A stretch of DNA of 64,000 bases from an uncultured Phycisphaerales bacterium (GTDB lineage Bacteria > Planctomycetota > Phycisphaerae > Tepidisphaerales > Tepidisphaeraceae), in NCBI GenBank assembly GCA_963755915.1, contig CAVWLP010000002.1:4672001-4736000 (forward strand). The letters are read 5' to 3'. Of the stretch, positions 4,898 through 25,594 are shown piece by piece (position 1 is the first letter of the stretch; the number at the start of each line of letters is the position of its first letter). Position numbers and translations under genes: made by a program. Below the pieces are notes generated by a model. The model saw only the letters and a list, made by a program, of their open reading frames with translations. It searched no databases and was not told the origin of the DNA.

Positions 4898-4918
4898 CCA
4901 GTGAATTCCCCCATCCGC

Positions 4919-4943: not shown

Positions 4944-4963
4944 TTATCTGGTGGATGTCAATC

Positions 4964-6841: not shown

Positions 6842-6985
6842 AATCGCAAAACCGCCCAAATTTTTCCTCTTTTTCCCTGGACGATTTGGGGAAGCCGGAA
6901 AGTGGAGGTGGGGAGGGCTCCCGCTGTTTCAAGTCCCGCCCCGAAAGTCATTCATCCCGCCACCTGGGCTATACTTCCCCCTCGG

Positions 6986-8875: not shown

Positions 8876-8921
8876 CCCAACCCGGTAATTTCATCTGCGG
8901 ATTGGCTTTCATGCTTTCCGG

Positions 8922-9236
8922 CTACGCCTCGCCCATGCGTGGCTGTCTCGCACCGTGCCGAAAATTCACCACCTCGACGATACGAGCGGCATCGTTCACT
9001 TCGTAGTGGACCAGGTAGGTGTTCTCGAACACCATCTTGTGAATCCTGCCACCGATACGGGCGCACGCGTCCTCGTCGATGGCATGGCCGTGGAATTCCC
9101 CCAAACCTTCAATCGCGGCCAGCAACCGATCTTCCCACGCCAATGCATTCTCGATTGAATCCTCTGCGATGAAAAGCGTTTGCTCACGAATTTTGGCCAG
9201 CGTCGATTCGGCGATTTGAACCTGCAGTCGCTTCAC
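8922..9236 (-). CDS. Type II toxin, RelE/ParE family
   Basis: 104 aa; IAEDSIENA..W...L..AIEGL, YLVHYEV..., VVNFRHGAR. 4-nt overlap with the antitoxin. Confidence 0.85.
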   Translation of the reverse strand: MKRLQVQIAESTLAKIREQTLFIAEDSIENALAWEDRLLAAIEGLGEFHGHAIDEDACARIGGRIHKMVFENTYLVHYEVNDAARIVEVVNFRHGARQPRMGEA

Positions 9237-9556
9237 TTGGCCCCGTCACGCTTGGTCCCGTTACGCTTGGCCTTCAATGCCGTCAGTTCCGTCCGAAGTT
9301 GGGCAAACGCGGCACGAACATCCTTGCCTTTGCCATCTTTGAATTCCTGGCGGGCGAGCTGGATGGCGGCGATATCGCGGGCAAGCAAAACCTCACGAGC
9401 CATCGCATCGTACGCGGCAGGCGACAAGAGCACCGCCCGGGCTTCGCCGTTCACGGTGATGATTTCCGCCTCGCCTGTCTCATTCAGCCGGTCGAGCGTT
9501 TCTCCCGCTTTGTGACGGAAATCAGACAGCGACTGCGTGTGTTCAGTGGACAGCAT
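9233..9556 (-). CDS. Type II antitoxin, Phd/YefM family
   Basis: SLSDFR..AGE.LDRL..TGE.EIITVNGEARAVLLS..AYD. Confidence 0.88.
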   Translation of the reverse strand: MLSTEHTQSLSDFRHKAGETLDRLNETGEAEIITVNGEARAVLLSPAAYDAMAREVLLARDIAAIQLARQEFKDGKGKDVRAAFAQLRTELTALKAKRNGTKRDGAK

Positions 9557-9573
9557 TTACCTCGCTCGCAATT

Positions 9574-9606
9574 GGGATAATGAATTAGTTATAAATTCAT
9601 TATCCC
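9574..9606. promoter_or_regulatory. Perfect 13-bp inverted repeat, likely operator of the phd-parE module
   Basis: gggataatgaatt-agttata-aattcattatccc, 18 nt upstream of the antitoxin start. Confidence 0.7.
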
Positions 9607-9667
9607 TTCACCGCGCTGAAAAGGCAACATTCCCGTTGTCCGGCATCGAAAAAAAGCCAGAACCCCC

Positions 9668-9702
9668 TGATATCAACGCCATCAATGATTTCGTTGATAT
9701 CA
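9668..9702. other. 11-bp perfect inverted repeat/hairpin (terminator or protein-binding site)
   Basis: tgatatcaacg-N13-cgttgatatca, downstream of the HD-GYP stop. Confidence 0.45.
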
Positions 9703-9722
9703 CGAAAACCACGTACTCAACC

Positions 9723-9787
9723 TACCCAGGCCCCCCAGCTTATTGCAGAGTGTAAAGTTTTGTATTGCATCACCCGACGCCCAAAAA
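9723..9787 (+). repeat. Copy 1 of a 65-bp dispersed intergenic element
   Basis: 51/65 ungapped identity (manual alignment) to the reverse complement of 34792-34856. Confidence 0.8.
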
Positions 9788-9797
9788 TTAGGAGGCA

Positions 9798-10814
9798 TTA
9801 CGCCGCTTCGGCCTGGTGCTCGCCGAGGCGGTTGTGGATGGAGATGAATTTTTCCTCGGTCTGTAGGAATGCGTCGACGAGATCGGAATCGAAGTGGGTG
9901 CCTGATTCGCGGACGATGAGGTCGCGGGCGATGTCGGGGGTGAAGGCGGCTTTGTAAACGCGCTTGGAGGTGAGCGCGTCGTAGACATCCGCCAATGCCA
10001 CGATCCGGGCGCAGAGGGGAATCTCGTTATCGTGGAGGCCGTGCGGATACCCCTGGCCGTCCATGCGTTCGTGATGATAGGCGGCGATATCCCGGCCCAT
10101 TTCCAGGAACTTTACGCCGGGAAATTCGCGCAGGGCGGCGTCGAGGGTTTGAGCGCCGATGCTGGTATGGGTTTTCATGATTTCGAACTCCCGGTCGCTC
10201 AGCCGCCCAGGCTTCAGCAGCACCGAATCCGGAATCCCCACCTTCCCAATGTCATGCAGCGGGCTGGTCATGTAAATAAGTCGCGCATATTCCGGCGTAA
10301 TTTCCCTCCGATATTTTTCCACCGCCCCCATGTGCTGCGCGAGCACCCGGCAATAGCTCCGCACCCGCTCCAGATGAGCCCCGGTCTCCGGATCGCGGCT
10401 TTCCGCCAGTTTTGCCATCGCGAAGATCGCTACGTCACGGGTTTCCAGAGAGAGCACCCGTTCCGCGGTGCCGATTCGGGCCAGGAGCTCAGACGTAGTA
10501 CACGGCTTGGAGACAAATTCATCCGCCCCCGCGCGAAGTCCTTCCACCCGTGCTTCCGGCGTGTCCCGGCTGGTTAGAAGAATCACATAAACATATCCGC
10601 CAAGCTGCTCGGCGCGAACCGCTTTGCACAGTTCCACGCCGCTCATCTCCGGCATTTCCCAGTCGGAAAGAACCAGCCGGCACGATCCTTCCCGGATATG
10701 GCCCAGGGCTTCCGTCCCGGTGCGCGCGGTCACGACTTCGTAGCCGGCGCTCACCAGCGCCTGCTGGAGCATCAGGAGGGAGATTTCATCGTCGTCGGCA
10801 AGGAGAATTCGCAT
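9798..10814 (-). CDS. Response regulator with HD-GYP c-di-GMP phosphodiesterase domain (RpfG-like)
   Basis: REC (ILLADDD, SDWEMP, KP); RDPETGAHLERV, LHDIGKVGIPD, HHERMDGQGYP, ADVYDALTSKRVYK. Confidence 0.93.
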   Translation of the reverse strand: MRILLADDDEISLLMLQQALVSAGYEVVTARTGTEALGHIREGSCRLVLSDWEMPEMSGVELCKAVRAEQLGGYVYVILLTSRDTPEARVEGLRAGADEFVSKPCTTSELLARIGTAERVLSLETRDVAIFAMAKLAESRDPETGAHLERVRSYCRVLAQHMGAVEKYRREITPEYARLIYMTSPLHDIGKVGIPDSVLLKPGRLSDREFEIMKTHTSIGAQTLDAALREFPGVKFLEMGRDIAAYHHERMDGQGYPHGLHDNEIPLCARIVALADVYDALTSKRVYKAAFTPDIARDLIVRESGTHFDSDLVDAFLQTEEKFISIHNRLGEHQAEAA

Positions 10815-10849
10815 GAAGTCCCTTTAATGCGGTTGAAAACCAAAACGGA

Positions 10850-11245
10850 TCATGCAGCCCCCCCACCGCTTTTGGCGGTCGCCGGCGAGGAATTTTGCGA
10901 GACTTGCCGGCGAATGTTGGGAAGCTGCTGGATGCATTCATCAACCTGCTGCGAAAGAACGGCGAGGGCGGATTCGAGTTTGCCGAGTTCGCACCCGCGT
11001 CCAAGTTTTTCCAGTTCCGCGGCGGCGTTTCGGATCGCGTCAGCGCCGACCATCCCGGCAGACCCCTTGAGCAAGTGGGCGAGCCTTGCGCACTGCTCGG
11101 CGCTCTGCGGGGGACTCTGTTGGGCGAGACCCTGCCGTATGTCGGCCAGAATCGTGGCCGACTGCCGCTCGAACTTCTCCAGTATCGACAAGGCGAGGGG
11201 GGAGCTTCCGGAACATCGTTCCAATAAGAGACCGATGTCAATCAT
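10850..11245 (-). CDS. Stand-alone Hpt phosphotransfer protein
   Basis: AHLLKGSAGMVGA..I...A.ELE motif. Confidence 0.88.
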   Translation of the reverse strand: MIDIGLLLERCSGSSPLALSILEKFERQSATILADIRQGLAQQSPPQSAEQCARLAHLLKGSAGMVGADAIRNAAAELEKLGRGCELGKLESALAVLSQQVDECIQQLPNIRRQVSQNSSPATAKSGGGAA

Positions 11246-11251
11246 GCCGGA

Positions 11252-14041
11252 CTAATCGGCGCGGTTATCGGCAGCGGGGTGCGGCGGCGATTTATCGGAC
11301 AGGAAAGACCAGACGACGTCGAGCAGTTCGCGGGGCTTGAAGGGCTTGCTGCAATAGCCGTCCATGCCGGCCTCCTGGCAGCGGGCGCGATCGGCGCCGG
11401 AGACATTGGCCGTGAGGGCAATGATGGGGATTGGGCGGGTGGGATTGCCGGTGGTGGTTGATTTGCGCTCGTGCTCGCAATGGCTCGCGCGGCTTCGATG
11501 CCGTCCATGTTGGGCATCTGGCAATCCATGAGGATGAGGTCGATTCCACCCGCGATGGCGGCGTTTACGGCGCTGCGGCCGTCGCCCACGATTATCGGAT
11601 GAAAGCCCGCGCTCTTAAGGAAGTCATCGGCGACGATCTGGTTGATCTCATTGTCCTCGGCTACGAGGATGCGGAAATTGTTGGGGCGGGTGGAATCGCG
11701 AGGCGTATCCGATACCGATTTTACGGACCGATCGATTCCCGCTGCGGCGGCGATCGCCTGGAGAAGCTGGGCGCGGCGAATGGGCTTGAGGATCGTCGCC
11801 GCGATGTTGGAGGGGTATTGGTCTTCGACGGCGAGGGAGTCTTCGGCGCTGGTCATCAGCACGCAGGGGATGCGCGTGGAAGAGAGGAGTTTTGAAATTC
11901 CTTTGGCGTCGCGGTCGATGAGGATGAGTTGGATGGGTGGGGAGCTGGTTGTCAGGACGGAAATTGCGTGGTCGCCGTCGGGTGCGGAAGTCGGAGCTGT
12001 CCTGGTTTCTTTGAGGTATCGAGAGACGATTTCGTTGATGGTGGGATTTGGGATGACGGTGAGGATACGCATTGCTTTCAGGGGTTTGGGGATTGACGGG
12101 GAAGGGTGCGGAGCCGCGGTGAGGTTGGCGTTGAACCAGAAGGTGGAGCCGCGGCCGACTTCGCTGGCTACGCCGATGGTTCCGCCCATGAGTTCGGCGA
12201 GTTGCTTGGAAATGGCGAGGCCAAGGCCGGTGCCGCCGTATTTGCGGGTGGTGGATGCGTCGACCTGGGAGAAGGATTTGAAGAGGCGGTCGAGGCGCTC
12301 GGGGGGGATGCCGATGCCGGTGTCTGAGATTTCGAAGTGGATTGTGGCTTTTGTGGGATTCGTGCCCCCACCCATCGTGCCGAAACCACCGGAAGAGGAC
12401 AGGGAGGGTTCCCCCGGAGTACCAGGGGAGGGGATAATAGGAGAAATCTCAGGGGTGATGCGGACGATGATCTGGCCTTTTTCGGTGAATTTGATGGCGT
12501 TGCCTACTAGATTCAGGAGGATTTGGCGGAGGCGGGTGGGGTCGCCGGTGACGGTGACGGGGACTTCGGCGGCGATGTCGCAGGCGATTTCGACGCCTTT
12601 GCGAAAGGCTTTGCCGGACATCAGCTCGACGACGTCTTCGGCGACGGCGTGGAGATTGAAATCGACGGATTCAAGTTCGAGCTTGCCGGCTTCGATCTTT
12701 GAGAAATCTAAAATGTCGTTGATGAGCGTGGTGAGAACCTCGGTGGAGGTCTTGACGAGCTGGGTGTAGTGGCGCTGGCGTTCGTTGAGATTGGTGCCGA
12801 GGAGAAGATTGGTGATGCCCAGGACGCCGTGCAGGGGCGTGCGGAGCTCGTGGCTCATGTTGGCGAGGAACTGGCTCTTAGCGCGGCTGGCGGCCTGGGT
12901 TTCCTCGACGAGGCGCTGAAGCTGCCGGCGGGTGCGGAGTTGGAGCACCATGTCGTTGAAGGCGGAGGCGAGCTCGCCGATCTCGTCGCGGCGGGTTACG
13001 ACGATGGAGGAATTCAGATCGCCCTCGGCGACGCGGCGCACGCCTTCGCCGAGGTCGTGCAGAGGGCGGACGATGGGAACGGTGACCACGAAACTGAACA
13101 GAACGGCCAGGAGCGTTCCGCAGACGGCAGTGATCAACAGATTTCGCAGCATCGTGGCGCGAATGGCAGCCTCCTCGCTCTGATTGCTGAGAATAAGCAT
13201 CGCTGCGACCTGGCTGCCCGAAGAAGGGTCGATGACCGGATCCAGCGCCGCGCGATAATTTGCGACGCCAAGGCTGAGAGTGAATGGAGCTTCCATCGGC
13301 CACGCGCCGGTTTTGTACGATTTGAGTAATTCAGGTCGCACCGCGGAGGGCAGACTGCACGCGAAAAATTGAATCGGCAGAGAGAAAGCCAATCTCGCAA
13401 TTATGGCTGAGGCCCAGATCGGAGGCGAGCTGGTCGGTCCAGGGCGTCGCGAGAAGCATTGCGCCGCTGGGGGATTCTTCCGGATCGTTAGGGTCGCCAA
13501 AAATTAGCGGCATGGCGACGACCTGATAGAGCTTTCCGCGATAAGCCCACAGACCGGTTTGGGCGGTGGCCCGGGCGGCGCCGCTGGCCTGGAATACGTT
13601 GCGGACGACCGCGAGGGCCGCGGGATCGTTGGCGAAAAATTGAGAGAGGTCTTTCAGGGAGGGCCAGGGTGAGGCGGCGTTTTGGGCAATGAGCGTGCCG
13701 CGGTCGTCGAGAACGCAGGCGAAATCGACGTCGAGGGTTTGCGACAGGCTGTCCAGACGCTCCTGTAGGCTGGCGATGTTTTCGCTGGAGACCTCGTAAT
13801 TGTGCTCGGCGATGAGGGCGCGGAGCTCGGGAATGTTCATCACGATCGCGCCGGCCTGGCGCATGCGGAGGAGGCGCTCGGACTGGAGGGTGTGAAGGCT
13901 CTGGCGCATGCCGGCGAAATTGGAATCGCTCATCCGATCGAAGCTGGCGTGGATGGTGTGGAGGAATGGCCAGGCCATGCCGGCGACGAGCAGAAGCACG
14001 ACGGCGGCCCACCAGAGGAGAAGTTTGTTGCGAAGGCGCAT
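11252..14041 (-). CDS. Membrane hybrid sensor kinase (periplasmic Cache-like domain, HAMP, HisKA, HATPase, two REC); frameshifts near 13365 and 11475
   Basis: Three ORFs join: 13331-14041 (TM plus periplasmic domain), 11242-13500 (FLANMSHELRTP, NAIKFT, DTGIG, GGTGLGL, REC) and 11252-11524 (PIIALTAN...GMDGYCSKP). Confidence 0.88.
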
Positions 14042-14052
14042 GAAGTTTGTGG

Positions 14053-14862
14053 TCAGTTGGAGGGAGCCGGCTCGGAGGCGGGGTGGGCGTCCGGAATGAC
14101 CGGGAGATTGAGTTGTTCGCGTTTTACGCCCAGGCCGCGGTCGATTCCAGTGTAGCCCTGGTGGTCAGGGGCATCGTTATCCATGATGGCGTCGCGACTC
14201 GCGGCGAGGTGGAATGCGATGCCGTTCACATCAGCGCCGGCGACGTCAATCGGCTGGCGGATTTCGTCGCAGCGGTCGTGCCAGGCGACGATCTGGTAAT
14301 GCCCGGGCGGGACGTTTTTGATCTGGAAATTTCCCTGCGAATTGGCGCGGGCGAAGTAAGCGTTGGGGGTTACGAAGATGATGGCGCGCATGAAGGGGTG
14401 AATGTTGCAGAAAAGCTGAACGACGCCGACTTTGTCGAAGGTCTTGGTTTTGGAAAAGCCGTAGGGATAGCGATCGAGATCGAATGCGGGGGCGGCGACG
14501 GACCGGCTGAAGACGTTGTGATAGAAGTGGTCCCAGTTGGGGAAATCGACCTGGGCGCCTTTTGGGATGGCGATGAAGTTTGGGACGAAGGCGCGGTTGT
14601 GCTGGGCGACTGTGAAAGGTTTGGGCGGCGGCGGCACGGAATCGAGCGTAGGATCGGAGCCGAGATAGATAACGACTCGAGATGGGTCCGGCTTCTGGAA
14701 GGAAAGGAATGATTGGAAATCGACCGTACCGCTGACAGTGACTCCGCTGGGAGCAGTCGATGGGGCCAGGACCGTTGCCGGCTGCGTGGCCGGCTGCTCG
14801 AGTGCCAGCGCCGCGAGGGTTGTCGAGAGGGCGATGATGACGATCAGGGTGATTTGCCGCAT
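14053..14862 (-). CDS. Secreted cupredoxin-like (type-1 copper) protein with carboxypeptidase-regulatory-like domain
   Basis: Signal peptide; F.N.D...HNVFS and FCNIHPFM (His/Cys/His/Met ligand set); GNFQIKNVPPGHYQIVAWH. Confidence 0.8.
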   Translation of the reverse strand: MRQITLIVIIALSTTLAALALEQPATQPATVLAPSTAPSGVTVSGTVDFQSFLSFQKPDPSRVVIYLGSDPTLDSVPPPPKPFTVAQHNRAFVPNFIAIPKGAQVDFPNWDHFYHNVFSRSVAAPAFDLDRYPYGFSKTKTFDKVGVVQLFCNIHPFMRAIIFVTPNAYFARANSQGNFQIKNVPPGHYQIVAWHDRCDEIRQPIDVAGADVNGIAFHLAASRDAIMDNDAPDHQGYTGIDRGLGVKREQLNLPVIPDAHPASEPAPSN

Positions 14863-14881
14863 AGGGTCTCCATCGTGCCGG

Positions 14882-16000
14882 TCAGTAAGCGAAAGTCAGG
14901 TGGATTGAGATGGCGTCGGTGCCGCCGAGGGCGTTGCTCTGGTCGTGCCGGTATTCGCCGCGGATTTCCGCGCCGGGAAGAATTTCATAGGCGAGTCCGC
15001 CGCTGATTTCGTGGGCAACCTGGGTAGCGCCGGTGACGAGCCACTGTGGATCGTTCAGATAACTGAAACGAGCGAAGGCGCGGAATTTGTCAGTGATGTT
15101 GTAGTTGGCGAGGACGAGGAATCCGTTCCAGGCGGGATGGTCGGGGCTGGCGCCCTGCATGGCGAGAAGTCCCTCGGCGGCGAGGGTAAGGGCTTTTGTG
15201 GGCTGCCAGGTGACATGGGCGTCGGCGAAGTAGAAGGTGCCGCCGGTGCTGGCGTAGCCGATGTTTGGGCCGGTCCAGTTGTAATAAGGATATTCGTCGG
15301 CTTCATAGTAGCTGTAGGGCGCGCCGACAAATCCGGGGGCGATCCAGTTGGTGAAAGCGATTTTTAGAGCTTGAGTGGGGCCGTATTCCAGGATCGCACC
15401 GCCGGAGGGCGATTGATCGAATTCGGATTCTCCGTCGAAATTATTCGCGATGAAGGGGCGCAGGGTGAGGCCGGTGTTGCCCAGCGGCTGCGTGATCATG
15501 ACGCCGATAAGGTCTTGCGGTTCTGCGCCGAAGAGAAGACTTGCGGTTCCGCCGAAGCGGTCCCACTCGTCGCGCGGCTCGACGCCGATGTTGGCGTTGA
15601 ACTTGCCGACGGTAACGAGAGTTCCCAGGGATGGGAAAACATTGGCGGAGACGAATGCCTGTTCCAGGAAACCGCTGACGCTGTTCTGGTCGTCGATGAG
15701 GTGCATCTCCGCCGTGGCAGCGATGCGATCTCCGATGCTGGCCGTCCCCGCGAGGGCGACATCACCCAGCCAATAGTCTTTGTAATCGTCGCCGCTGTTG
15801 TGCAGATAAGAGAACCATCCCCACGCGTTGACCTGGAGGTATTGCTGCACATCGGTTGGCAGAAGGTTTTCGAGGGCCGGCTTCGAGTCGAGATCATCGC
15901 CTTCGGTTTGAGCCAACGAAGGCGCCGCCATGGCCACCAGGACCGCGGAAATCAAGAGAAGTTGAAATTTGAACTGCCGTACAAACAACATATTTTGCAA
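14882..16000 (-). CDS. Outer-membrane beta-barrel/porin (BBP2-like)
   Basis: Signal peptide; LEQAFV, VGKFN..IG.E; amphipathic strands; C-terminal aromatic residue (LTFAY). Confidence 0.75.
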   Translation of the reverse strand: MQNMLFVRQFKFQLLLISAVLVAMAAPSLAQTEGDDLDSKPALENLLPTDVQQYLQVNAWGWFSYLHNSGDDYKDYWLGDVALAGTASIGDRIAATAEMHLIDDQNSVSGFLEQAFVSANVFPSLGTLVTVGKFNANIGVEPRDEWDRFGGTASLLFGAEPQDLIGVMITQPLGNTGLTLRPFIANNFDGESEFDQSPSGGAILEYGPTQALKIAFTNWIAPGFVGAPYSYYEADEYPYYNWTGPNIGYASTGGTFYFADAHVTWQPTKALTLAAEGLLAMQGASPDHPAWNGFLVLANYNITDKFRAFARFSYLNDPQWLVTGATQVAHEISGGLAYEILPGAEIRGEYRHDQSNALGGTDAISIHLTFAY

Positions 16001-18589
16001 TCATGCCGGCCTCGCCAGGGATCGGACTGCGGGAAGAATACCCATTTTTAAAAGGGGCTGGATCTTCTCTTCGGGCATGGGCCCGCCGAAGAGAAAGCCC
16101 TGCATGCAATCGACATCAACATCGCGGAGGAGCTGGCGATGCTCTTCCGTTTCGATCCCCTCGGCAACGACCTTGAGGTTGAGACTCTTCGCCAGCGTCA
16201 CAATGGCGCCGATGAGCGGCCTGTGGGTCGAGTTGAGATCACCCCCACCAACCATCTCGAAGAAAACGTGGTTGATCTTGAGGGTCTGGAGAGTGAGGCG
16301 CTGGAGGTATGCGAGAGAGGAATAACCGGTGCCGAAATCGTCGATCGCGACGCTGACGCCGCGCTCATGCAGGGTGGCGAGCTTGCCCATCGCATCGCGC
16401 ATGTTTTTCATGAGGATGCTTTCGGTGATCTCCAGCTCCAGCCAGGGCTCGGCGCAGCCTGCGATTTCGAGGGCTGATTCGACGGTCTCGACGAAATCGG
16501 CCTGCGCGAACTGGAGCGCGGAGACGTTGACGGCCATGCCCTTGGGGGCGCAGCCGATCTCCCGCCATTTGCGGTATTGGCGTGCGGCTTCGTTTAGCAC
16601 CCAGGCGCCGATGGGGAGAATCAGGCCCGTATCCTCAGCAAATGGAATAAACGCGGAGGGGGAAACAAGCCCGAGCGTCGGATGCTGCCAGCGGACGAGG
16701 CCCTCGACGCCGACGATTTTTCCGGAGGGATCGACGACTGGCTGGTATTCGAGTCGAAGCTCGTTGCGCTGGGTGGCGTAGCGGAGTGCGTTTTCCAGTT
16801 CGAGCCGCGCCACGATTCCCTCCCCCATTTCCGGAAGGAAAACCAGCGCCGTGTTTCGGCCGGCCTCCTTGGCGCGGTAGAGGGCCAGGTCGGCATTTCG
16901 CTGGAGGGAGGCGGAATCGGAGCCATGCGCGGGGAAAACCGCGGCGCCGATGGTGACGGTCACAACCAGCTCCCGGCCGCGCAGGTCGATCGGGCGCTTG
17001 AAGGCGTCGACGAGATCCCGGGCCACGACCTCCGCATCCGCGGCGCTGGCCAGATTGCCGAGGATGGCGGCGAATTCGTCGCCCCCCATCCGCGCCAGTG
17101 TGTCGGATGTGCGCAGCCGCTGGCGAAGCCGCTCGCTGACCTGGCAGAGCAGTTCGTCGCCGTTATGGTGGCCGTAGGTGTCGTTAACAAATTTGAACCG
17201 GTCGACGTCAACCAGCAGGACCGCGAGCGGTTTGTTCGTACGGTTGGCGGCACCGAGAGCCTGCTCCAGGCGGTCGTTGAAGAGAATGCGATTGGGCAGG
17301 CGCGTGAGGGCATCGTGATGCGCCTGGAAGGTAAGCTGCTCGGTAAGCTGGCGATGCTCGTGCGCCAGGCCGGCCAGTTCGCTGGCCAGCTTCAGCATTT
17401 CGATGGCGGAGGTACCGGGCCGCTGCTTGTCGCGCAGATAGATGAAAAATGCCCCGGCCGGCTCGCGGTGGCGCGACTGGATCAGCATCGCCCAGCAGGA
17501 GCGGATTCCCTGGTCCGCCAGGTGCGGACGCACCGGAGCCCACACGGAATCCTCCATCACGTCGCAGACGATGATTCGATCGTGCTGGTTGGCGGAGAGG
17601 CCAACGAGCCGGGCGATGATCTCGGGAAGTTTTGTTTCGATCGCGGTGGACAGAGCCGTCGGCAGCTTCGGCGCCAAGTGCGTATGCGGCGGGGTTATAA
17701 GGCCAATCGCGGCCGAGGCGGCCTGCGGCTCCTGCGCATGCGCCGCATCGACCAGACGATTCAGCGTGTCCAGCAGCGGGCGCCCTGGGCGATCATCTCC
17801 AACGCTTCGGCACGCACCTCCTCGCGATATTCCATCTGCTTGCGCGAGGTAATGTCGCGCAGACGCCTGAAACTCGCCCGGGCTCGTGCCGGCGGTGTGC
17901 AGAACGCGCCGGCAGGTCGATTCGAGCCATACATATTTGCCGTCCGAGCGGCGGAAGCGGAATTCGATCTGGCCGGTTTCGCCGAGGTTGGCCTGGCCGC
18001 TATAACATTTTTCCAGGGCCGCTTTGTCTTCGGGATGGACGAAGGCGCTGAGGTTCATGCCGACCATCTCTTCAGGCGCATAACCAAGAATCGCGATCGA
18101 CGCGGGTGAGACGTACATGAACGTGCCGTCGAGCGACTGCCGGGATATCACGTCCGAAGAATTTTCCGCCAGGATCCGGAACCGCTCTTCCTTTTGCGCG
18201 AGCAGATCGATCAGGTTTTTGGTGTGAAGCGAGTATCGCACGCGGGCGCACAGTTCCGCCGGGTCGAAGGGCTTGGTGACGTAGTCGGTCGCGCCCATCG
18301 CCAGTCCGCGCAGCTTTTCGTCGGTGGAGGAAGCGCCGGTGAGGAAGACGACGGGAATGTCGGCTGTGTGGGCATCCGCCTTCAGGCGCTTGCACACTTC
18401 GAACCCATCGACGCCAGGCAGATCGACGTCCAGAAGAATCAAGTCCGGCCCGATCTGCGACGCGGCCGCCTGGGCGCGCTCGCCGTCGGCGCAGGAGAAG
18501 AAGTCGAGCGGTTCCCTCGCCAGCCAAACCCGCACGAGCTCCTGAATATCTTCGGAGTCGTCAATGATGAGCAGTTTTTGGTTTGGCAT
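16001..18589 (-). CDS. REC-PAS-GAF-GGDEF-EAL diguanylate cyclase/phosphodiesterase
   Basis: REC; PAS (RFRILAENSSDVI...YVSP..WLE); RTSD I-site plus GGDEF; EGL, DDFGTGYSSL, EGIE. A compensating frameshift pair at about 17780-17860 hides DITSRKQME. Confidence 0.93.
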   Translation of the reverse strand: MPNQKLLIIDDSEDIQELVRVWLAREPLDFFSCADGERAQAAASQIGPDLILLDVDLPGVDGFEVCKRLKADAHTADIPVVFLTGASSTDEKLRGLAMGATDYVTKPFDPAELCARVRYSLHTKNLIDLLAQKEERFRILAENSSDVISRQSLDGTFMYVSPASIAILGYAPEEMVGMNLSAFVHPEDKAALEKCYSGQANLGETGQIEFRFRRSDGKYVWLESTCRRVLHTAGTSPGEFQASARHYLAQADGISRGGACRSVGDDRPGRPLLDTLNRLVDAAHAQEPQAASAAIGLITPPHTHLAPKLPTALSTAIETKLPEIIARLVGLSANQHDRIIVCDVMEDSVWAPVRPHLADQGIRSCWAMLIQSRHREPAGAFFIYLRDKQRPGTSAIEMLKLASELAGLAHEHRQLTEQLTFQAHHDALTRLPNRILFNDRLEQALGAANRTNKPLAVLLVDVDRFKFVNDTYGHHNGDELLCQVSERLRQRLRTSDTLARMGGDEFAAILGNLASAADAEVVARDLVDAFKRPIDLRGRELVVTVTIGAAVFPAHGSDSASLQRNADLALYRAKEAGRNTALVFLPEMGEGIVARLELENALRYATQRNELRLEYQPVVDPSGKIVGVEGLVRWQHPTLGLVSPSAFIPFAEDTGLILPIGAWVLNEAARQYRKWREIGCAPKGMAVNVSALQFAQADFVETVESALEIAGCAEPWLELEITESILMKNMRDAMGKLATLHERGVSVAIDDFGTGYSSLAYLQRLTLQTLKINHVFFEMVGGGDLNSTHRPLIGAIVTLAKSLNLKVVAEGIETEEHRQLLRDVDVDCMQGFLFGGPMPEEKIQPLLKMGILPAVRSLARPA

Positions 18590-20924
18590 TGGTTTCACCC
18601 TTTTGGTCGTATCCTTCGATATCGCGGATAATGTCGATCAGCTCGTCGACGGCGGTTTTAACGGCCTCGCATTCGGCGGTGGCCTTGATCAGTGACTCGG
18701 CCTTGGCGGCCGCGTCGGTGATTCTAGGGAAGCCGTAGCCCGCGCCGGCGCCCTTGAGCTGATGTACCAGTCGGCGCAGCTCGTCCATTTCCTGGGTTTC
18801 CAGGAGGGAGACCATGGAAGCGACGCGCGTGGGCAGCCTTGAGACAAAGCCCGCGACGGCGTGCTGCATCGCCGCGCCCGCCGAATCGGCTTTGAGCGGG
18901 CGCAGCTCTTCGATCGTCCGCACCGGGGCCGCGTGGGCGGCGTGCGCGGTCGCGGCAGGATGCGGGTGCTTGCCCGACTGCCGCAAATACCCGTCGATCG
19001 AGCGCAGCAGGACCTCCTTCTCAATCGGCTTGGTGAGATAGTCCGTGCAGCCGGCGTCGAGGCACTTGGCCCGGTCCCCGCTCATGGCGTGAGCCGTCAG
19101 CGCGATGATCGGCAGCTTGTAACCCAGCCGACGAAGTTGCGAGGTCGCTTCGTATCCATCCACTTCGGGCATCTGCATGTCCATGAGCACCAGGTCGAAT
19201 TGCTGCGAAGTAACCTTCTCAATCGCTTCGCGCCCATTGGGAACGACAACGACTTCAGCCCCGGCCATGGTGAGGTGCATGGTGAGCAGGTGCTGATTGT
19301 CGATGCCGTCTTCAGCCAGAAGGATTTTTCCATGCAGGAGGATGTCTTCGGTATTGCTCGCCTGGGTGAAGACCGTGAGCATCGATTCGGTCAGGCCGTG
19401 GCGCATCGGCACGTCGCTCAGCGGGCCGCCGTCGACGAACAGCGTGAACTTGCTTCCCTTTCCGGTCTCCGATTTGACGCAGAGATCGCCCCCCATGAGC
19501 GTGGCCAGACGTTTGCTGATCACCAGCCCCAACCCCGAACCGCCATATTTGCGGGTCATCGACACGTCCGCCTGCACAAACGGCTGGAAGAGCCGGGAGA
19601 TCTGCTCCTGCGTCATGCCGATGCCCGTGTCGGAGACTTCGAGCATGACCCGGCTGGTGTTGCCGCTCCGGGCCACGCTGACGGAGATTTTGATTTCACC
19701 GCGCTCGGTAAACTTTATCGCGTTGCCGGTCAGATTCATGAGAACCTGCTTGAGGCGCAGCGGGTCCGTCCGGATGACTTCGGGTATGTCGCCGATGAAT
19801 TCGACGCGCAGCTCAATCTGCTTTGCCGTGGCGCACACGCGAAGCATTGAGGCGACGTCGACCGCGAGGCGCACCACGTCGCAGGGAATTCTTTCGACCG
19901 TCATCTTCTCCGCTTCGATCTTGCTGATGTCCAGAATGTCGTTGATCAGATCCATCAGGTGCCGCGCGTTTCGCCGCACGACCTGGAGGCAGTTGATGCG
20001 GTCCGACATCGTCTGCACCGGCGAGAGCATGAGATCCGAATAACCCAGGATCGCCGTCATCGGCGTGCGGATCTCATGGCTCATGTTCGCGAGGAATGCA
20101 GTCTTCGCCCGGCTAGCCTCCTCGGCCTTGTCCTTGGCGGCGGAAAGCTCCGCCGTTCGCGCGGCCACGAGCTCTTCAAGGTGATGGCGATGCAGGTTCA
20201 ACTGCGAATCGCGCTGGGCGATCTGTTCCAGCATGCCGTTGAAGCAATCGACCAGAACCCCAAGCTCGTCGTCGGAGGTCTTGGTGGCGCGCACCTGGTA
20301 ATTGCGGTCGACCGTGATTGTCTTGGCCGTGGCGCTGAGGTGCTCGACCGGGCCGATCACGGAGCGCGAAAGCCGCCGCGAAAGCGCGAACGCCAGCCCC
20401 AGGGCGCTCAAAAGCACCACGCTGAACACAGATTCGTACTCGTGGGTCCGAGTGGTGAGCAGATCGAGGTCCGACTGGATGAAAACCCATCCAAGCAGGC
20501 GGCCGTTCAGTTCAACCGGGCTGGAGACAATCAGCGAGTCGGCGGTGAAGCGATATTCGCCGATTCCCATGGGGGTGAAATCCGGAAGGGCGGCCGAGTG
20601 GTCCCGGAAATAGCTGGCCAGCTTCTGCTGGCTGTTGTCGTAAATCGCGGCGGTCACGACGTGCGGCTCGGCGCGCAGCGACGCCAGAAGCCGCGCCGCG
20701 TCGTTTGGGTCGGCAAACGACAGGTCGGCGTTGGAATTTTCGGCGATGATGTTCGCATAAGTCTGCGTGTCGATGATCAGCCCGCGGCGAATCTCGTGGT
20801 AGTCATACACCGCCAGCACCGCCACCGCGACGAGCAACGCCGCACCCGCGGAAGTGAGGCTCATCACCAGCAGCTTGGCCTTGAGCGTTTTGGGGGCGAA
20901 GTTGAAACGACTGGAATTTTTCAT
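18561..20924 (-). CDS. Membrane hybrid sensor kinase (YfiN-like periplasmic sensor domain, HAMP, HisKA, HATPase, REC, Hpt)
   Basis: Two TMs flank a YfiN-type domain (L.F.D...A..LL.SL); FLANMSHEIRTP; NAIKFT; MDMQMP; VHQLKGAGAGYG. Confidence 0.93.
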   Translation of the reverse strand: MKNSSRFNFAPKTLKAKLLVMSLTSAGAALLVAVAVLAVYDYHEIRRGLIIDTQTYANIIAENSNADLSFADPNDAARLLASLRAEPHVVTAAIYDNSQQKLASYFRDHSAALPDFTPMGIGEYRFTADSLIVSSPVELNGRLLGWVFIQSDLDLLTTRTHEYESVFSVVLLSALGLAFALSRRLSRSVIGPVEHLSATAKTITVDRNYQVRATKTSDDELGVLVDCFNGMLEQIAQRDSQLNLHRHHLEELVAARTAELSAAKDKAEEASRAKTAFLANMSHEIRTPMTAILGYSDLMLSPVQTMSDRINCLQVVRRNARHLMDLINDILDISKIEAEKMTVERIPCDVVRLAVDVASMLRVCATAKQIELRVEFIGDIPEVIRTDPLRLKQVLMNLTGNAIKFTERGEIKISVSVARSGNTSRVMLEVSDTGIGMTQEQISRLFQPFVQADVSMTRKYGGSGLGLVISKRLATLMGGDLCVKSETGKGSKFTLFVDGGPLSDVPMRHGLTESMLTVFTQASNTEDILLHGKILLAEDGIDNQHLLTMHLTMAGAEVVVVPNGREAIEKVTSQQFDLVLMDMQMPEVDGYEATSQLRRLGYKLPIIALTAHAMSGDRAKCLDAGCTDYLTKPIEKEVLLRSIDGYLRQSGKHPHPAATAHAAHAAPVRTIEELRPLKADSAGAAMQHAVAGFVSRLPTRVASMVSLLETQEMDELRRLVHQLKGAGAGYGFPRITDAAAKAESLIKATAECEAVKTAVDELIDIIRDIEGYDQKGETNAKPKTAHH

Positions 20925-21514
20925 TTTTTATAAATCCTCGCGAGCTTCATGAGTTTTGCACTCACCTTGAGACCGGCGGCCGCGACCGCGTCGGGGCTGA
21001 CCTCAAAACGCATGCGATCATCCTCCAGAAAAAATCGCATGCACCCGCCGGCAGGATCAAACGCATCTGTTTCCCCCACCGTCAGGATCGGCCGGTTGCC
21101 GAGATTGTCGAAAAGACTCTTCAGCGAAGGGTCCAGCGCCGCCGGAACGAAAAGAAGCTGGCATTGTCCGACGTCGCCCACCGTGTTGTAGTGAACGACC
21201 TGCACGTTTCGGTCGGCCGCGGTTTTTCCGGCCATGGCCGATTCGAGCGCGCCGTTAAACGGGTCTGGCCCCACTGTGGCCACGACAAACGCCGCGTCCC
21301 GCGACGGGAACGCCGAGTCGGGCCACTCAACGAATTGCGTGAAGTTGTACACAAATGCCGCCTTGATCAAATACTCCCGCGTCGGTCCATCGGCGCGGCA
21401 CGGAATCGCTGCGACAAGCAGCGCAGCGATCGCCGCCAATCTCCAGCTTCTGAATGTCCGCCCTTTACCCAGGCCGATCATAAATCCCGCAATTCGTGAA
21501 AGAGTTCCCAACAC
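20921..21514 (-). CDS. yfiR: YfiR-family periplasmic protein (DUF4154)
   Basis: EYLIKAAFVYNFTQFVEWP, G.DPF, CQLLFV, ILTVGE, GLKVSAKLMKLA. Confidence 0.9.
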   Translation of the reverse strand: MLGTLSRIAGFMIGLGKGRTFRSWRLAAIAALLVAAIPCRADGPTREYLIKAAFVYNFTQFVEWPDSAFPSRDAAFVVATVGPDPFNGALESAMAGKTAADRNVQVVHYNTVGDVGQCQLLFVPAALDPSLKSLFDNLGNRPILTVGETDAFDPAGGCMRFFLEDDRMRFEVSPDAVAAAGLKVSAKLMKLARIYKK

Positions 21515-21530
21515 ATCCCGAGCCGCGGGG

Positions 21531-23579
21531 CTAGTAGGTCATGGTCCACTCCGCATAAAAAGTGCGAGGCACTTCGCTGGGAATAGTAACTGAGTTGACG
21601 TCCCCGGATTCGTAATGACGGCCCTGGAGAAGGTTTTGGACGCCAACGGCGAGAGTCATATTGGGGTTGATCAGCCAGCGAATATTCGCGTCGAGGCGGA
21701 CATAGGCATTGACGCTCTGGTAAATGCCCTCGTCGTTAAGCGCGTCTATGAAGGCCAGCGCGTCGACGTAATAGAGCGAAGTGTTGAACTGAATATTTTT
21801 TGTCAGGTCGAGATAGGAGTGGATCTGGAACTGGTTCCGGGGAGCGCTTTTTTCGATGAACTCGGTTTCGTAGCCGGGTTGAAAGAGGTCCAGGGCATCG
21901 CGGATGATCGGGTGTCCTTCGATGCGAAGATAAGAATAGCTCGCGCCCAGCCGCCAGGCGGGATTAACCTGCCAGTTCAAGGAAAGCTCGCCCCCGTAGC
22001 TGTAAGCGTTGACCCCGTTGCCGTAATCGACTTCGGTAAAATTAGTGGGGTTGGGAATTGGAACAATCAGTCCGGAATAAATATTGTAAAAGCCGGAGAC
22101 CGAAGCCGTAAAAGGCTTGACCGGTTGGACTTTATAGCCAACTTCGAAAGCGTCGGTTTTTTCGGAATCCGGGTGCTGTGTACCGATTTGAACATCATCT
22201 CCAATTGGAAATTGGATCTCCTGGTCCACGGAAGGGATGCGCACCGCGCGGGAGTAGGCCGCCCACAGTGAATTCCGATCGTCGGGTGTCCACAGCAGGC
22301 GGGTGCTCGGCTGTGGCTCCAGGGTGGTGAGATTGTTGTATTCCAGCTTCGTCCCGAGGAACCACTGGAGGTGGTTGGGCACAATCGAAACCTGGTCCTG
22401 AACGAATCCATTGATGTCATATTCGTTGGTGTAGGTTGGATAGACTGGCGCGCCGGTAGGACTGACAATTCGAATGAAATAATCGCGCCCGGCCAAACCC
22501 CAGGTTACGTCCTGCATTTCCCCAATCGGAAATCGGTTCTGGAACTCCACGTCGAACGTGTCCTGCTGGTATCCGATTGGATAATCGACCAGAACCTGCC
22601 GGTCATAATAGGCGATGATCGAGGTGTCGGCGCGATCTGACTCCACGTGCGACCATTTTCCAAGCAGATTCCCGCCGTTATTGTAGAAATTGGTGTCCAG
22701 AGGAGTCGCTGCTCCCGTGTTGCTCGCAGTTTGCTCGAGCTGCTGGAAGAAAATGTCACTGGAAAGAGTGAGGGTATCTTCCGGCGAGGCGTATCGATCC
22801 AAACGGAAGCCGCCTTGCACGCCGCGCCACTCATCATGGGCCGGATCGCCATTGGGCTGATAGCCATTTCCGCCGTACTGAACCTGAGAGTAAACCCGGT
22901 AATACGTGTTGTCGTCGATTTGGCCGCCGTAACGGAAGTCGCCGTAGTCCTGCTGGGTTCCGCCGCGCGTATCGACGAGAAGACCCTGGGTATCCTTCGC
23001 CGATTTCGTGATGACGTTGACAACTCCATTGACGGCGTTCGCGCCCCACAGCGTCGAGCCCGGGCCGTTGATCACTTCGATCCGGTCCAGGTCCATAAGG
23101 GGATAATTGACCGAGTTCCACGTCACGCCCCCAAACGCCGGCGTGTATAGCGAGCGCCCGTCCATCAGCACCAGCAGGTTGTCGGCAATATAGGCGTTCT
23201 GCCCGCGCGAGCTGATCGCCCACTGATCGGAGCTAATCTGGGCAACATCCATCCCCGGCGCAAGCCGCAGCAATTCCGGAATGCTTCCCAGGCCCGAGCG
23301 CTGGATGTCATCCTGCCCGATCACGGAAACCGCCGAAGGCGCGTTGGAGATTTTCTGCGGCTCCTTGGCGACGCTGGTGACCTGAACATTCATCAGGTCT
23401 TCGAGGCTAAGGCCCGTCAGATCTTCACTGCCGCCGCTGGGTTGCGTGGAGGTTATGGGCCGGGTCGTGGCGCTGGGCTGCGTAACCGGCGCCGCAAGCG
23501 CGTGCCCCCAGAGCGCAGACAAGACCACAAATGAAGATCGACGTGAAATCTGCGGCCCTCCGATTCCCTGACCGAGCAA
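21531..23579 (-). CDS. TonB-dependent receptor
   Basis: LSLEDLMNVQVTSVAK, plug motif RIEVINGPGSTLWGANAVNGVVNVITK, C-terminal NLL..H.E...PRTFYAEWTMTY. Confidence 0.93.
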   Translation of the reverse strand: MLGQGIGGPQISRRSSFVVLSALWGHALAAPVTQPSATTRPITSTQPSGGSEDLTGLSLEDLMNVQVTSVAKEPQKISNAPSAVSVIGQDDIQRSGLGSIPELLRLAPGMDVAQISSDQWAISSRGQNAYIADNLLVLMDGRSLYTPAFGGVTWNSVNYPLMDLDRIEVINGPGSTLWGANAVNGVVNVITKSAKDTQGLLVDTRGGTQQDYGDFRYGGQIDDNTYYRVYSQVQYGGNGYQPNGDPAHDEWRGVQGGFRLDRYASPEDTLTLSSDIFFQQLEQTASNTGAATPLDTNFYNNGGNLLGKWSHVESDRADTSIIAYYDRQVLVDYPIGYQQDTFDVEFQNRFPIGEMQDVTWGLAGRDYFIRIVSPTGAPVYPTYTNEYDINGFVQDQVSIVPNHLQWFLGTKLEYNNLTTLEPQPSTRLLWTPDDRNSLWAAYSRAVRIPSVDQEIQFPIGDDVQIGTQHPDSEKTDAFEVGYKVQPVKPFTASVSGFYNIYSGLIVPIPNPTNFTEVDYGNGVNAYSYGGELSLNWQVNPAWRLGASYSYLRIEGHPIIRDALDLFQPGYETEFIEKSAPRNQFQIHSYLDLTKNIQFNTSLYYVDALAFIDALNDEGIYQSVNAYVRLDANIRWLINPNMTLAVGVQNLLQGRHYESGDVNSVTIPSEVPRTFYAEWTMTY

Positions 23580-23631
23580 TCATCTAAGTACCTCTTTCGC
23601 CAGTTCTTGCGAGGGCGATCGGCTGGCATAT

Positions 23632-23659
23632 CAATCGGTGCAAATGGGAGGTTTATTTA
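23632..23659 (-). promoter_or_regulatory. Possible sigma-28(FliA)-like promoter of the signalling operon
   Basis: Minus strand TAAA-N16-ACCGATTG versus consensus TAAA-N15-GCCGATAA. Confidence 0.3.
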
Positions 23660-23788
23660 GGTTGTGCGGCGTGGGTGAGATGAATTGATTATAAGGACTG
23701 CGGCCGTAACTTCGGCCCCGAGAGCAATCTGATGCGGAAACTGTTATCGGACCTGCCGGCCAATTCCCGGCCTGATCTCAGGATGAGT

Positions 23789-25031
23789 TTATTCGGACCG
23801 CGTCATCGCAGGCTCGGCAAGCTTCGCTGGCGCGCCGTTATCGGACGCTGGCCGGGACGTGAAGTACCGCTTGATCTTCAGGAATTGCGCCTCGTAAAGA
23901 TGGTAGCTGGCAATCGAAATCGCCAGCGCGCACCCGCCCCCAAAGATTTCGTAGGCGAATGTTTGCGGTAGGCTCATCTGGCCGCCCTGGAGTGGATAAA
24001 CCCGCCCGAAGATGCGCAGATATTGTGGCATTAATAGATAGTGATAGACGTACAGCCCATAACTGTATTTTCCCAGCATCATCAGCCAGCGCGATTCCAT
24101 CGCCCAGGTGAATACGTTGGCGGTGGGCTTGGCCAGGCTCCAGACGATCACACTCGCGAAAAGTGGTCCCGTCAGGGTGTACGCTATGAGCTGCACAACC
24201 GGCTCGCCACTGTCCAGACCGCCGCGCACCCCAAAGAGAATCGTCAAACCTGCGACGCAAAACCCAACAACCCACGGAGCCCAGCCCCGGACGCGATCGA
24301 GCGCTCGCTGATCGCGCGACAGCACCGCCACCAGCGCGCCATAGCACAGCGTATCCATCCGAAACGGCGTCATGCCGAAAACCACCGCCCAATCGGAGTG
24401 AAATCCCAGGATCGCGATCGCGCGCAACCGGCGCAATCGCGATCAGGGCAATGCAAATTCGCCGCAGCGACCGCTCATCAAGCAGATAAACGATGGTCGG
24501 CCAGATAAGATAAAACTGCTCCTCAACGGCCAGAGACCAGAAATGGTTCACGCGAACCGCATCTCCCGGCCAAAGCTTCCCCGTCCAAGCCATCCGGAAA
24601 TTGCTCAAATAAGTCCAGAACCAGATCTGCTGCGCACGCAACTCGGGCGACGGCCGGTCCGGCCGGATCATCGGCATCGCCACGAAAATCGCCAGCAAAA
24701 CCCCGTAATAAAGCGGAAAAATCCGCACCGTGCGCCGCCCATAAAAGTTGACGAAAAACCCGGGCTTGCCACGGGCCCACAGAAGGATGCGGGTGATAAG
24801 AAATCCCGAGAGTACAAAGAAAAGATCGACCCCCATCCACAGCGGTGAGATCGTAACATGCCAGGCGTGCTGAACCGCGGTCTGATGAGCGCACATCTCC
24901 CCAAAATGAAGCACCATGATGGCGAGGATCGCAACCCCGCGCAGCCCGTCGAGCGCCGGCACATGCGGCCGCGAAAGGGGAGACATCGCACCCCCACCGC
25001 TCCTCAAACTGCCAACATCGTCGCTGCTCAC
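23789..25031 (-). CDS. Acyltransferase-3 family (OafA-like) membrane O-acyltransferase; frameshift near 24425
   Basis: LDGLRGVAI, GVDLFFVLSGFLIT, RR..RIFPLYY, HFWSLAVEEQFY; the second ORF has LGKYSYGLYVYH and SYHLYE. Confidence 0.9.
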
Positions 25032-25072
25032 TGCAAATCCATTTCGGCTTTATGGCGCCTGGCGATCAAAAA

Positions 25073-25594
25073 CTAATCAAATTTCCAGTCCGGTTCATCC
25101 GCAGAATTGAAATAGACCGCCGGGACGGGCACGTTGAGCAGCCGCAGATATAAGCAAAGCTGCGCGCGATGGTGAATCATGTGATTCATGCACCAGACGC
25201 GATAGATCATCGCTTTGGGCTTGCTCGCCATCACGTGCGATCCGTTGCGGATGGTCCAGACGTCGCCGATGCGGCCAGCGTCGAATTTTTTAACCGCCGC
25301 ACGAAGCTCATTGGCACATTTGTCGAACTCCGCGAGAAGATCCTTTTTATCCGTCGGCTCGACGCGCGGTGCGGCGCTGGCCATGTCGAGGCCATCTTGA
25401 GCAATGGTCGATTTCGCCCAATCCGGCATCGTGGCAACGTGCATCGCCAGCCGGCCCAGGTTCATCGATTTTTCGTGCGGCTTCCAACCGAACTTCTCTT
25501 CCGGCAGTCGCTCCAAAACCGTTCGTGTAACCGCCAGCTCCCGCTCCAGATCGCCGAAAATCAGCTCATGGGCAGACAGGGTTTGAGTTGCCAT
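25073..25594 (-). CDS. DinB family protein
   Basis: WKPHEKSM.LG.LA.H and NHMIHHRAQL..YLRL. Confidence 0.9.
   Translation of the reverse strand: MATQTLSAHELIFGDLERELAVTRTVLERLPEEKFGWKPHEKSMNLGRLAMHVATMPDWAKSTIAQDGLDMASAAPRVEPTDKKDLLAEFDKCANELRAAVKKFDAGRIGDVWTIRNGSHVMASKPKAMIYRVWCMNHMIHHRAQLCLYLRLLNVPVPAVYFNSADEPDWKFD

Follow-up and report, generated by a model that had tools for sequence, protein, structure and literature searches.

The 64,000-nucleotide stretch analyzed here, from an uncultured Phycisphaerales bacterium (contig CAVWLP010000002.1; this whole stretch is called the window, and positions are those of the window), contains a tight run of nine genes, all on the minus strand and with exact limits at 9798-23579, in which two gene sets each lead from the outer membrane to an enzyme of cyclic di-GMP (c-di-GMP) turnover. 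We consider it probable, if well short of certain, that these sets, modules A and B, are two complete and unrelated envelope-to-c-di-GMP phosphorelays, lying head to tail and probably co-transcribed, each conserved separately and brought together by a lineage-specific fusion. A first-pass annotation made from the sequence alone had described the region as two tandem relays forming a push-pull circuit; its observations are largely confirmed, and its interpretation is partly supported. The nine genes, in the order in which they are read, are as follows.

21531..23579, minus strand: TonB-dependent receptor (TBDR), the outer-membrane part of module A (Pfam Plug 77-186, barrel 206-650)
20921..21514, minus strand: YfiR-like periplasmic protein (Pfam DUF4154, YfiR/HmsC, E = 6e-41)
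18561..20924, minus strand: kinase A, a CHASE8-HAMP-HisKA-HATPase-REC-Hpt hybrid kinase (Pfam)
16001..18598, minus strand: response regulator REC-PAS-(GAF)-GGDEF-EAL, the output of module A (Pfam)
14882..16000, minus strand: BBP2/OmpL-like beta-barrel porin, the first gene of module B (Pfam BBP2, E = 3.4e-19), starting 0 nt past the preceding stop codon
14053..14862, minus strand: predicted blue (type-1) copper protein of the periplasm, with a beta-sandwich domain at the C-terminus plus a conserved tail (from ligands and fold)
11252..14041, minus strand: kinase B, with dCache-type periplasmic sensor-HAMP-HisKA-HATPase-(degenerate REC)-REC, spread over three frames
10850..11245, minus strand: Hpt phosphotransfer protein (Pfam Hpt, E = 2e-15; H57 in HxxKG)
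9798..10814, minus strand: REC-HD-GYP response regulator of the c-di-GMP phosphodiesterase type, the output of module B (Pfam REC and HD_5/HD)

Gene order and linkage of the two modules

Several features characterize this arrangement. First, the junctions are overlapping or very short, as the first-pass annotation had stated: +16 nt between the TBDR and YfiR-like genes, -4 nt between the latter and kinase A, -38 nt between kinase A and the GGDEF-EAL regulator (-29 if the first ATG of the regulator is used), 0 nt between that regulator and the porin, +19 nt between porin and copper protein, +11 nt between copper protein and kinase B, 6 nt between kinase B and Hpt (TAG, then two codons, then ATG), and +35 nt between Hpt and the HD-GYP regulator. 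A tight run of genes in one direction is an ordinary operon signature, and since the 0-nt junction at which the two modules meet is retained in a related locus (L001, described below), co-transcription of both modules is likely, as far as sequence can tell. Second, a codon comparison with L001 finds all nine genes under purifying selection, with ratios of nonsynonymous to synonymous divergence (dN/dS) of 0.026-0.153. Third, a scan of positions 8800-25200 found 6 promoter-like sites (4.8 expected) and 10 terminator-like sites (16.2 expected), none of the latter at any gene junction, by consensus patterns that may not suit the host phylum. Fourth, the two modules do follow the common plan first noted from the sequence, namely an outer-membrane protein, a periplasmic protein, an inner-membrane hybrid kinase and a c-di-GMP enzyme. 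Recent duplication of one module from the other was considered and rejected: their REC domains share 27% identity, their Hpt domains 27% and their kinase cores 42%, and the sensors are unrelated. Finally, Pfam largely upholds the domain content given at first pass, except that kinase B is not a single open reading frame (ORF) and its Hpt is not natively free; the CHASE8 sensor of kinase A had not been named. Every His and Asp expected to accept phosphate is in place.

A scan of species-representative genomes with an alignment of the copper protein yielded 26 loci (L001-L026), onto which the domains of the window were mapped. One of these (L001) contains all nine genes in the same order, with 89.4% DNA identity over 15 kb. 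The next 13 (L002-L014), from metagenome-assembled genomes (MAGs) of Phycisphaerae/Tepidisphaerales, have the porin, the copper protein and kinase B with its Hpt as standalone module B loci; the 10 kb upstream contain no TBDR, YfiR, CHASE8 or GGDEF-EAL match, and the genes upstream of the porin vary by locus (GH5, PP2C-kinase, OmpR-type two-component system, SSF symporter). Because it stands alone in these loci beside differing upstream genes, module B is a self-contained cassette. Module A is adjacent to it in one of the 15 other module-B-type loci (L001-L014 and L016), which is L001, a close relative. The dual layout was therefore not borne out as a conserved system. The first-pass annotation had named a complete lack of linkage in other genomes as one outcome that would count against it, and what was found comes close to this: the modules are linked in L001, and in none of L002-L014 or L016. 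The nine-gene fusion appears to be a lineage-specific junction of two known relay kinds, confined to the Phycisphaerales lineage of the window.

Module A and the direction of its output

The TBDR, the YfiR-like protein and the kinase of module A have as their best matches three curated NCBIfam models (NF053590-NF053592) of one gene set. The TBDR matches NF053590 (TOL_0244-family TBDR) over its full length with 519 bits, below the cut-off of 645, and its second-best model lies ~400 bits lower (108 bits). The YfiR-like protein, whose N-terminus resembles a signal peptide when read directly from the sequence, passes NF053591 (TOL_0243-family YfiR-like periplasmic protein; 141.4 bits, cut-off 125) and fails the canonical YfiR equivalog NF053586 (34.6 bits, cut-off 85). 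Residues 14-236 of kinase A barely pass NF053592, 'sensor histidine kinase, YfiR-like protein-associated' (194.6 bits, cut-off 194; profile 2-222 of 223). Kinase A has its phospho-acceptors (H283, D582 and H721), and its exact architecture recurs in 11 homologues of 50-93% identity, one of them labelled Tepidisphaeraceae. The response regulator contains D57, RxxD at 496, GGDEF at 505, EGL at 632 (for EAL), DDFG at 753, K-I-N at 774 and EGIE at 813. The EAL domain scores 213.6 bits despite EGL in the EAL position and the K-I-N, which occupies what we take to be the K-x-D position of EAL domains; the GAF domain is weak (21.8 bits, cut-off 28.6). Values of dN/dS against L001 are 0.085 for the TBDR and 0.038 for the regulator. 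The gene set first proposed for module A (TBDR, YfiR, a HAMP hybrid kinase with its own Hpt, and REC-PAS-GAF-GGDEF-EAL) thus agrees with Pfam, the GAF weakly, and the GGDEF and RxxD sites are intact as claimed.

The window resembles the NCBIfam TOL_0244/TOL_0243/kinase cassette in having the three genes in the same order, with the YfiR-like protein and the N-terminus of kinase A over their cut-offs. It differs in that the TBDR scores below its own, and in that the kinase adds REC and Hpt domains and is followed by the REC-PAS-GAF-GGDEF-EAL gene. Module A is a member of a cassette catalogued by NCBI for which no characterizing paper was found, literature searches on YfiR-like/DUF4154 proteins, TBDRs and CHASE8, the last judged by title, having yielded none on the TBDR/YfiR-like/CHASE8 combination.

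Comparison of the YfiR-like protein with plasmid records (tblastn against PLSDB) gave 10 matches. Six plasmid or chromid regions were opened (all but H3, H5, H9 and H10), and four were usable; those not counted are H6 (L029), which has no annotation, and H4 (L028), with an IS30 transposase in the expected place of the TBDR and the third gene absent from its table. All four usable regions (L027, L030, L031 and L032), on proteobacterial replicons, have the order TBDR, YfiR-family protein, CHASE8 protein, and have it without module B. According to Pfam, the third gene is CHASE8-HisKA-HATPase-REC in the two Sphingobium records and CHASE8-GGDEF-EAL in the Pseudoalteromonas and Ralstonia records. 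Because CHASE8 is joined to a kinase in two replicons and to GGDEF-EAL in two, the TBDR, YfiR-like protein and CHASE8 domain appear to form a conserved sensing unit with variable output; module A of the window would reach its GGDEF-EAL enzyme via a phosphorelay, not by fusion to CHASE8. The teaming of a YfiR-like protein with a kinase instead of a cyclase, to which the first reading had drawn attention, is thus real and recurrent, given that NF053591 and NF053592 are passed and that a CHASE8 protein follows the TBDR and YfiR genes in four loci.

The IS30 transposase of the excluded L028 (5940-6908, Pseudoalteromonas sp. HL-AS1) lies directly upstream of the YfiR-family gene, where its sister record L031 has the TBDR.

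A close characterized parallel is YfiBNR (TpbB/AwsXRO/HmsCDE) of Pseudomonas, E. coli and Yersinia. As in that system, a DUF4154/YfiR protein is encoded beside an inner-membrane CHASE8-HAMP sensor, an outer-membrane protein is in the same operon, and the end output is c-di-GMP turnover. There are four differences. First, the outer-membrane partner in the window is a TBDR, whereas YfiB is an OmpA/Pal-like lipoprotein, and no OmpA-like domain is present in the nine genes. Second, kinase A is a hybrid histidine kinase with an Hpt and without GGDEF, whereas YfiN is a CHASE8-HAMP-GGDEF cyclase. Third, the c-di-GMP enzyme of the window is a separate REC-GGDEF-EAL regulator. Fourth, the YfiR-like protein fails the canonical YfiR model. 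YfiBNR follows a repressor-sequestration logic (PMC4655355 and general background), and by analogy the YfiR-like protein of the window would bind CHASE8 and hold kinase A in one state until the TBDR, in the place of YfiB, titrates it away. Kinase A, with its own Hpt, would then pass phosphate to the REC-PAS-GAF-GGDEF-EAL enzyme.

This relay might raise or lower the c-di-GMP level, its output regulator being of the bifunctional GGDEF-EAL type; that module A drives synthesis is an assumption. A kinase also controls a REC regulator with GGDEF and EAL domains in Lpl0330-Lpl0329 of Legionella and RavA/RavS-RavR of Xanthomonas; the regulator of the window differs from Lpl0329 and RavR in its extra PAS and weak GAF domains, and its kinase has a CHASE8 input with YfiR-like and TBDR partners. 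For Lpl0329 and RavR, bioRxiv 10.1101/604611 describes phosphorylation as lowering cyclase activity or shifting the enzyme to phosphodiesterase, and because characterized regulators of this kind behave in this way, relay A may also lower c-di-GMP. In the push-pull circuit of the first-pass annotation, relay A drives c-di-GMP synthesis and relay B its degradation, as co-expressed antagonistic inputs. Such a circuit would accord with the single co-directional run and the 0-nt junction kept in L001, with the intact GGDEF and RxxD of one enzyme and the intact HD and GYP of the other, and with purifying selection on all nine genes. It seems unlikely nonetheless: the modules are linked in one of 15 other loci, and that one a close relative; module A occurs alone in four proteobacterial loci; the EAL signature of the module A regulator is near-complete too; and phosphorylated REC-GGDEF-EAL regulators, in the same paper, lose cyclase activity or shift to phosphodiesterase.

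Copper protein, sensor and broken kinase of module B

In L001-L013, L015 and L016, the gene immediately upstream of that for the copper protein encodes a porin homologue. Pfam Copper-bind falls below threshold in the copper protein of the window (19.6 bits, cut-off 21.2), which also has a CarboxypepD_reg-like domain, and some homologues do carry PF00127; sequence matches in the PDB are weak, and an NCBIfam scan gave no match for the porin, the copper protein or the first piece of kinase B. Two lines of evidence bear out the identification first made from the sequence. First, all 31 aligned sequences, and all 32 of a second alignment, have H115, C152, H155 and M158; we take these to be the copper ligands from amicyanin, whose C-x-x-H-P-F-M loop aligns with this protein. 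Second, the AlphaFold model (predicted local distance difference test, pLDDT, 82.8) matches plastocyanin, amicyanin, pseudoazurin and the type-1 copper domain of NirK in Foldseek, with 46 matches at E <= 1e-3 and target-normalised TM-scores of ~0.6-0.74 against the first three. The protein is accordingly a predicted blue copper protein. Its family comprises 299 matches, most at ~50% identity or more, and Atlas clusters of 580, 67, 88 and 71 members. At the other end of the module, the output regulator has D51, HD at 187, HHE at 247 and GYP at 255, the last three being the motif set that we take to define the HD-GYP family, and together with Pfam REC and HD_5 these confirm its assignment as REC-HD-GYP. 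Its dN/dS against L001 is 0.026, and its best NCBIfam model is a NosR-family regulator (161.8 bits, cut-off 400).

No Pfam family passes on the sensor of kinase B, for which there are sub-threshold CHASE4 and sCache_3_2 hints only. Its model (pLDDT 78.5) has a double-PDC/dCache (tandem-PAS) fold, and a fold search matches the periplasmic domains of DctB, Mlp24 and LuxQ at E ~1e-7 to 1e-8, including the LuxP-LuxQ complexes 2hj9 and 1zhh. When a profile of this periplasmic region was run on every stop-to-stop ORF of the 26 loci, it matched in 19 of them (L001-L016 and L019-L021), from several phyla, and in each of these the gene next to the copper protein was the only match. The output joined to the sensor varies: a hybrid kinase-Hpt, a plain HAMP kinase (in L019 adjacent to an OmpR-type regulator), or a HAMP-class III nucleotide cyclase, the last in a deltaproteobacterial locus (L021 9806-12493) where the copper-protein gene is convergent to the cyclase gene (sensor-profile E = 2.6e-13). 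In the remaining seven loci (L017, L018 and L022-L026) the same search of all ORFs found a copper-protein homologue without a sensor of the kinase B type. The flanking genes of one of these homologues (L017 6474-11927, a Myxococcales MAG) encode a BBP2-like barrel, a MauG-like di-haem peroxidase and a multihaem cytochrome; those of another (L018 6412-10699, an Acidobacteriota MAG) encode a di-haem oxidoreductase and a fused Ser/Thr kinase-FGE protein.

Complex prediction for the copper protein and sensor of L013, an intact pair, gave 0.44 against 0.12 for the best of three controls, with contact agreement between runs of at least 44% and partner pLDDT of at least 77. In the calibration of the tool, 116 of 157 solved complexes reach the mark, as do 2 of 215 mismatches; at 0.60 or less, only 18 of those 157 do so, together with both passing mismatches. 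These counts hold only roughly, since our own alignments were used. The AlphaFold-type check of cupredoxin and kinase B that had been suggested at first pass is thus weakly supportive and not decisive.

By analogy with known receptor pairs, the copper protein is most likely a periplasmic co-sensor of kinase B, reporting copper loading or redox state. Like LuxQ in the LuxP-LuxQ-LuxU system of Vibrio, kinase B is a hybrid kinase with a tandem-PAS/dCache periplasmic domain, encoded alongside a periplasmic partner and acting through an Hpt, which in the window is free, as LuxU is. The window differs in that the partner is a blue copper protein, not of the periplasmic-binding-protein fold, and the output is HD-GYP, not LuxO. 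A second parallel is RpfC-RpfG of Xanthomonas, in which a hybrid kinase with REC and Hpt feeds a REC-HD-GYP phosphodiesterase; RpfC senses diffusible signal factor via a membrane-embedded input, whereas the dCache domain of kinase B is large and periplasmic, and the kinase has two partners in the envelope. On the model of these two systems, relay B would run from the porin and the copper protein to the dCache hybrid kinase, which is normally fused to Hpt: the copper protein would signal copper or redox state to the kinase, phosphate would pass through Hpt to the REC-HD-GYP phosphodiesterase, and the c-di-GMP pool would fall when this regulator is active.

The other way to read the pair is that the copper protein is an electron carrier or copper handler that is merely co-expressed or co-regulated, the dCache domain binding a small molecule that enters via the porin. 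Domains such as those of DctB, Mlp24 and PctA do bind small ligands directly, the L017 and L018 homologues lie beside the MauG-like di-haem peroxidase, di-haem oxidoreductase and multihaem cytochrome, and the complex prediction (0.44 against 0.12) is weak. We find this reading rather doubtful, though not far-fetched, since in 19 of 26 loci the two genes remain neighbours even as the output changes three times, as is typical of a sensor and its co-receptor, and the Phycisphaerae loci have no oxidoreductase gene alongside the pair. It would be a considerably bolder proposal, which we advance as a long shot, that the co-sensor and its dCache partner are an undescribed sensing pair found across phyla, with a cupredoxin in a LuxP-like co-receptor role, wired to kinases, phosphorelays or cyclases, to HD-GYP in Phycisphaerae, and here fused to a YfiR-type relay. 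A literature search on cupredoxins with sensor histidine kinases and c-di-GMP/HD-GYP found only unrelated or genome-report papers. The copper-protein/sensor pair is the most original part of the region.

Kinase B itself, which the first-pass annotation took to be one hybrid kinase gene, is broken in this assembly by two single-base frameshifts, located near 13368 and near 11478 by alignment with L001.

13364..13370, minus strand: frameshift 1 in kinase B, in a T5 homopolymer of the coding strand (TTTTT in the window, TTTT in L001, where the frame is continuous)
11476..11480, minus strand: frameshift 2 in kinase B, inside REC, with one base fewer in the window than in L001

The first frame (14041-13331, 236 codons) encodes the transmembrane helix and most of the periplasmic domain before reaching a stop, the second is a 752-aa ORF, and the third encodes the C-terminal half of REC and ends at a TAG (11254-11252). 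The Pfam REC match in the 752-aa frame correspondingly stops at profile position 68 of 111, the rest being in another frame; intact orthologues in L010, L013 and L014, Hpt fused, are ~1050-1070 aa long. The REC of kinase B ends in the frame in which the Hpt gene is read, and the single TAG lies between them. L001 reads through: it has CAA in place of the TAG, and GTG in place of the ATG of the window. Of 35 homologues found for the kinase B sensor, 31 have a fused Hpt, as do the intact orthologues scanned in L010, L013 and L016. Orthologues are therefore seen as hybrid kinases with REC and Hpt, whereas the window has a kinase with broken frames and a separate Hpt; the free Hpt that had been taken as part of the module B design comes from a TAG private to this genome. 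Programmed frameshifting was considered and rejected, the shifts not being common to L001.

The two frameshifts are probably assembly indel errors, and the TAG is probably a real split that frees Hpt. Alignment with L001 over 13.9 kb shows 20 single-base indels; at 17 of these sites the frame is open in the window, which makes L001 the broken copy there. Frame breaks in kinase B occur in 8 of 9 loci belonging to one MAG record series and in none of 7 belonging to other series. If instead kinase B were a true pseudogene, with two frameshifts and a stop, relay B would be decaying, leaving its Hpt and HD-GYP regulator orphaned beside a working relay A. That the three lesions fall within one gene while the other eight remain open would fit this, as would the TAG, which arose by substitution and is absent from L001, and the dN/dS values of kinase B (0.139 over three frames) and Hpt (0.153), the highest of the nine. 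We regard decay as quite improbable, however. First, at 0.14 the dN/dS is nowhere near neutral, and coding constraint is kept in all three frames. Second, frameshift 1 sits in a homopolymer, other genes of the window are split similarly, and 17 single-base indels private to L001 fall in genes whose frame is open in the window. Third, the frame breaks go with a single record series (8 of 9 of its loci, and 0 of 7 from other series). Finally, a TAG followed two codons later by ATG makes for a viable free Hpt; free Hpt proteins are common, LuxU being one example.

Two further differences from L001 lie in these genes: an additional 30 bases (10 codons, Gly/Ser-rich) in the window at ~12405, in an insert of the kinase B HATPase, and a 12-base in-frame difference near 11120 in the Hpt gene. 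Broken frames also occur elsewhere in the window. Just upstream of the TBDR gene, an Acyl_transf_3 gene (23789-25031) is split over two overlapping ORFs (Pfam profile 2-160 and 188-325), a break of the same kind as in kinase B; a GT4-GT2 glycosyltransferase (48057-50167) is likewise split between two frames; and five overlapping same-strand ORFs at 55401-58770, the first matching the DUF748 profile over 8-240 of 1037, are probably one large gene broken several times.

Points against the two-relay reading, and its significance

In the arrangement that we favor, two relays taken as insulated from each other would let two envelope cues converge on one c-di-GMP pool. Several points weigh against it. 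First, the roles given to the YfiR-like protein, TBDR, porin and copper protein are read from gene order and from analogy. Second, the predicted complex of copper protein and sensor is supported only weakly, and the surroundings of the L017 and L018 homologues suggest that part of this family may serve in plain electron transfer. Third, kinase B has three lesions in 2.8 kb, one of them a substitution, while the other eight genes are intact. Fourth, a REC-HD-GYP gene follows Hpt in only 9 of the 13 Phycisphaerae-type loci with room for it (among L001-L014 and L016, of which L003 and L008 end at a contig edge). Finally, the adjacency of the modules has been maintained, with its 0-nt junction, over a synonymous divergence of ~0.25-0.58, which may argue that the fusion itself has been selected, beyond neutral juxtaposition.

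Around the nine genes, the ~4.9 kb directly downstream of the HD-GYP regulator (4898-9797) have no counterpart in L001, where only ~385 bp separate the flanking matches. This segment contains an ECF-sigma/TPR fusion (4901-6841), a TPR-GT41 glycosyltransferase (6902-8875) and a toxin-antitoxin pair (Phd/YefM, 9233-9556; ParE, 8922-9236). Further off, the minus strand encodes cytochrome bd oxidase subunits I and II (39363-41860), which are unrelated to the genes discussed here.

C-di-GMP signalling in Planctomycetota is almost unstudied, and the literature on c-di-GMP in Phycisphaerae, judged by titles and abstract openings, yielded no signalling study. The operon described as push-pull is a local gene fusion and not a conserved system, and warrants no generalization. 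Its parts raise two points. In module A, a histidine kinase may have come under YfiR-type repression, with a TBDR replacing YfiB. Module B combines known relay logic with an undescribed candidate partner, the copper protein; in the one review searched for c-di-GMP stimuli (PMC8846402), 'copper' and 'cupredoxin' have 0 occurrences, and such an input is not among the stimuli that it gives. The copper protein is thus a candidate redox or copper co-receptor, one that stays by a single kind of dCache sensor as the output domain changes.

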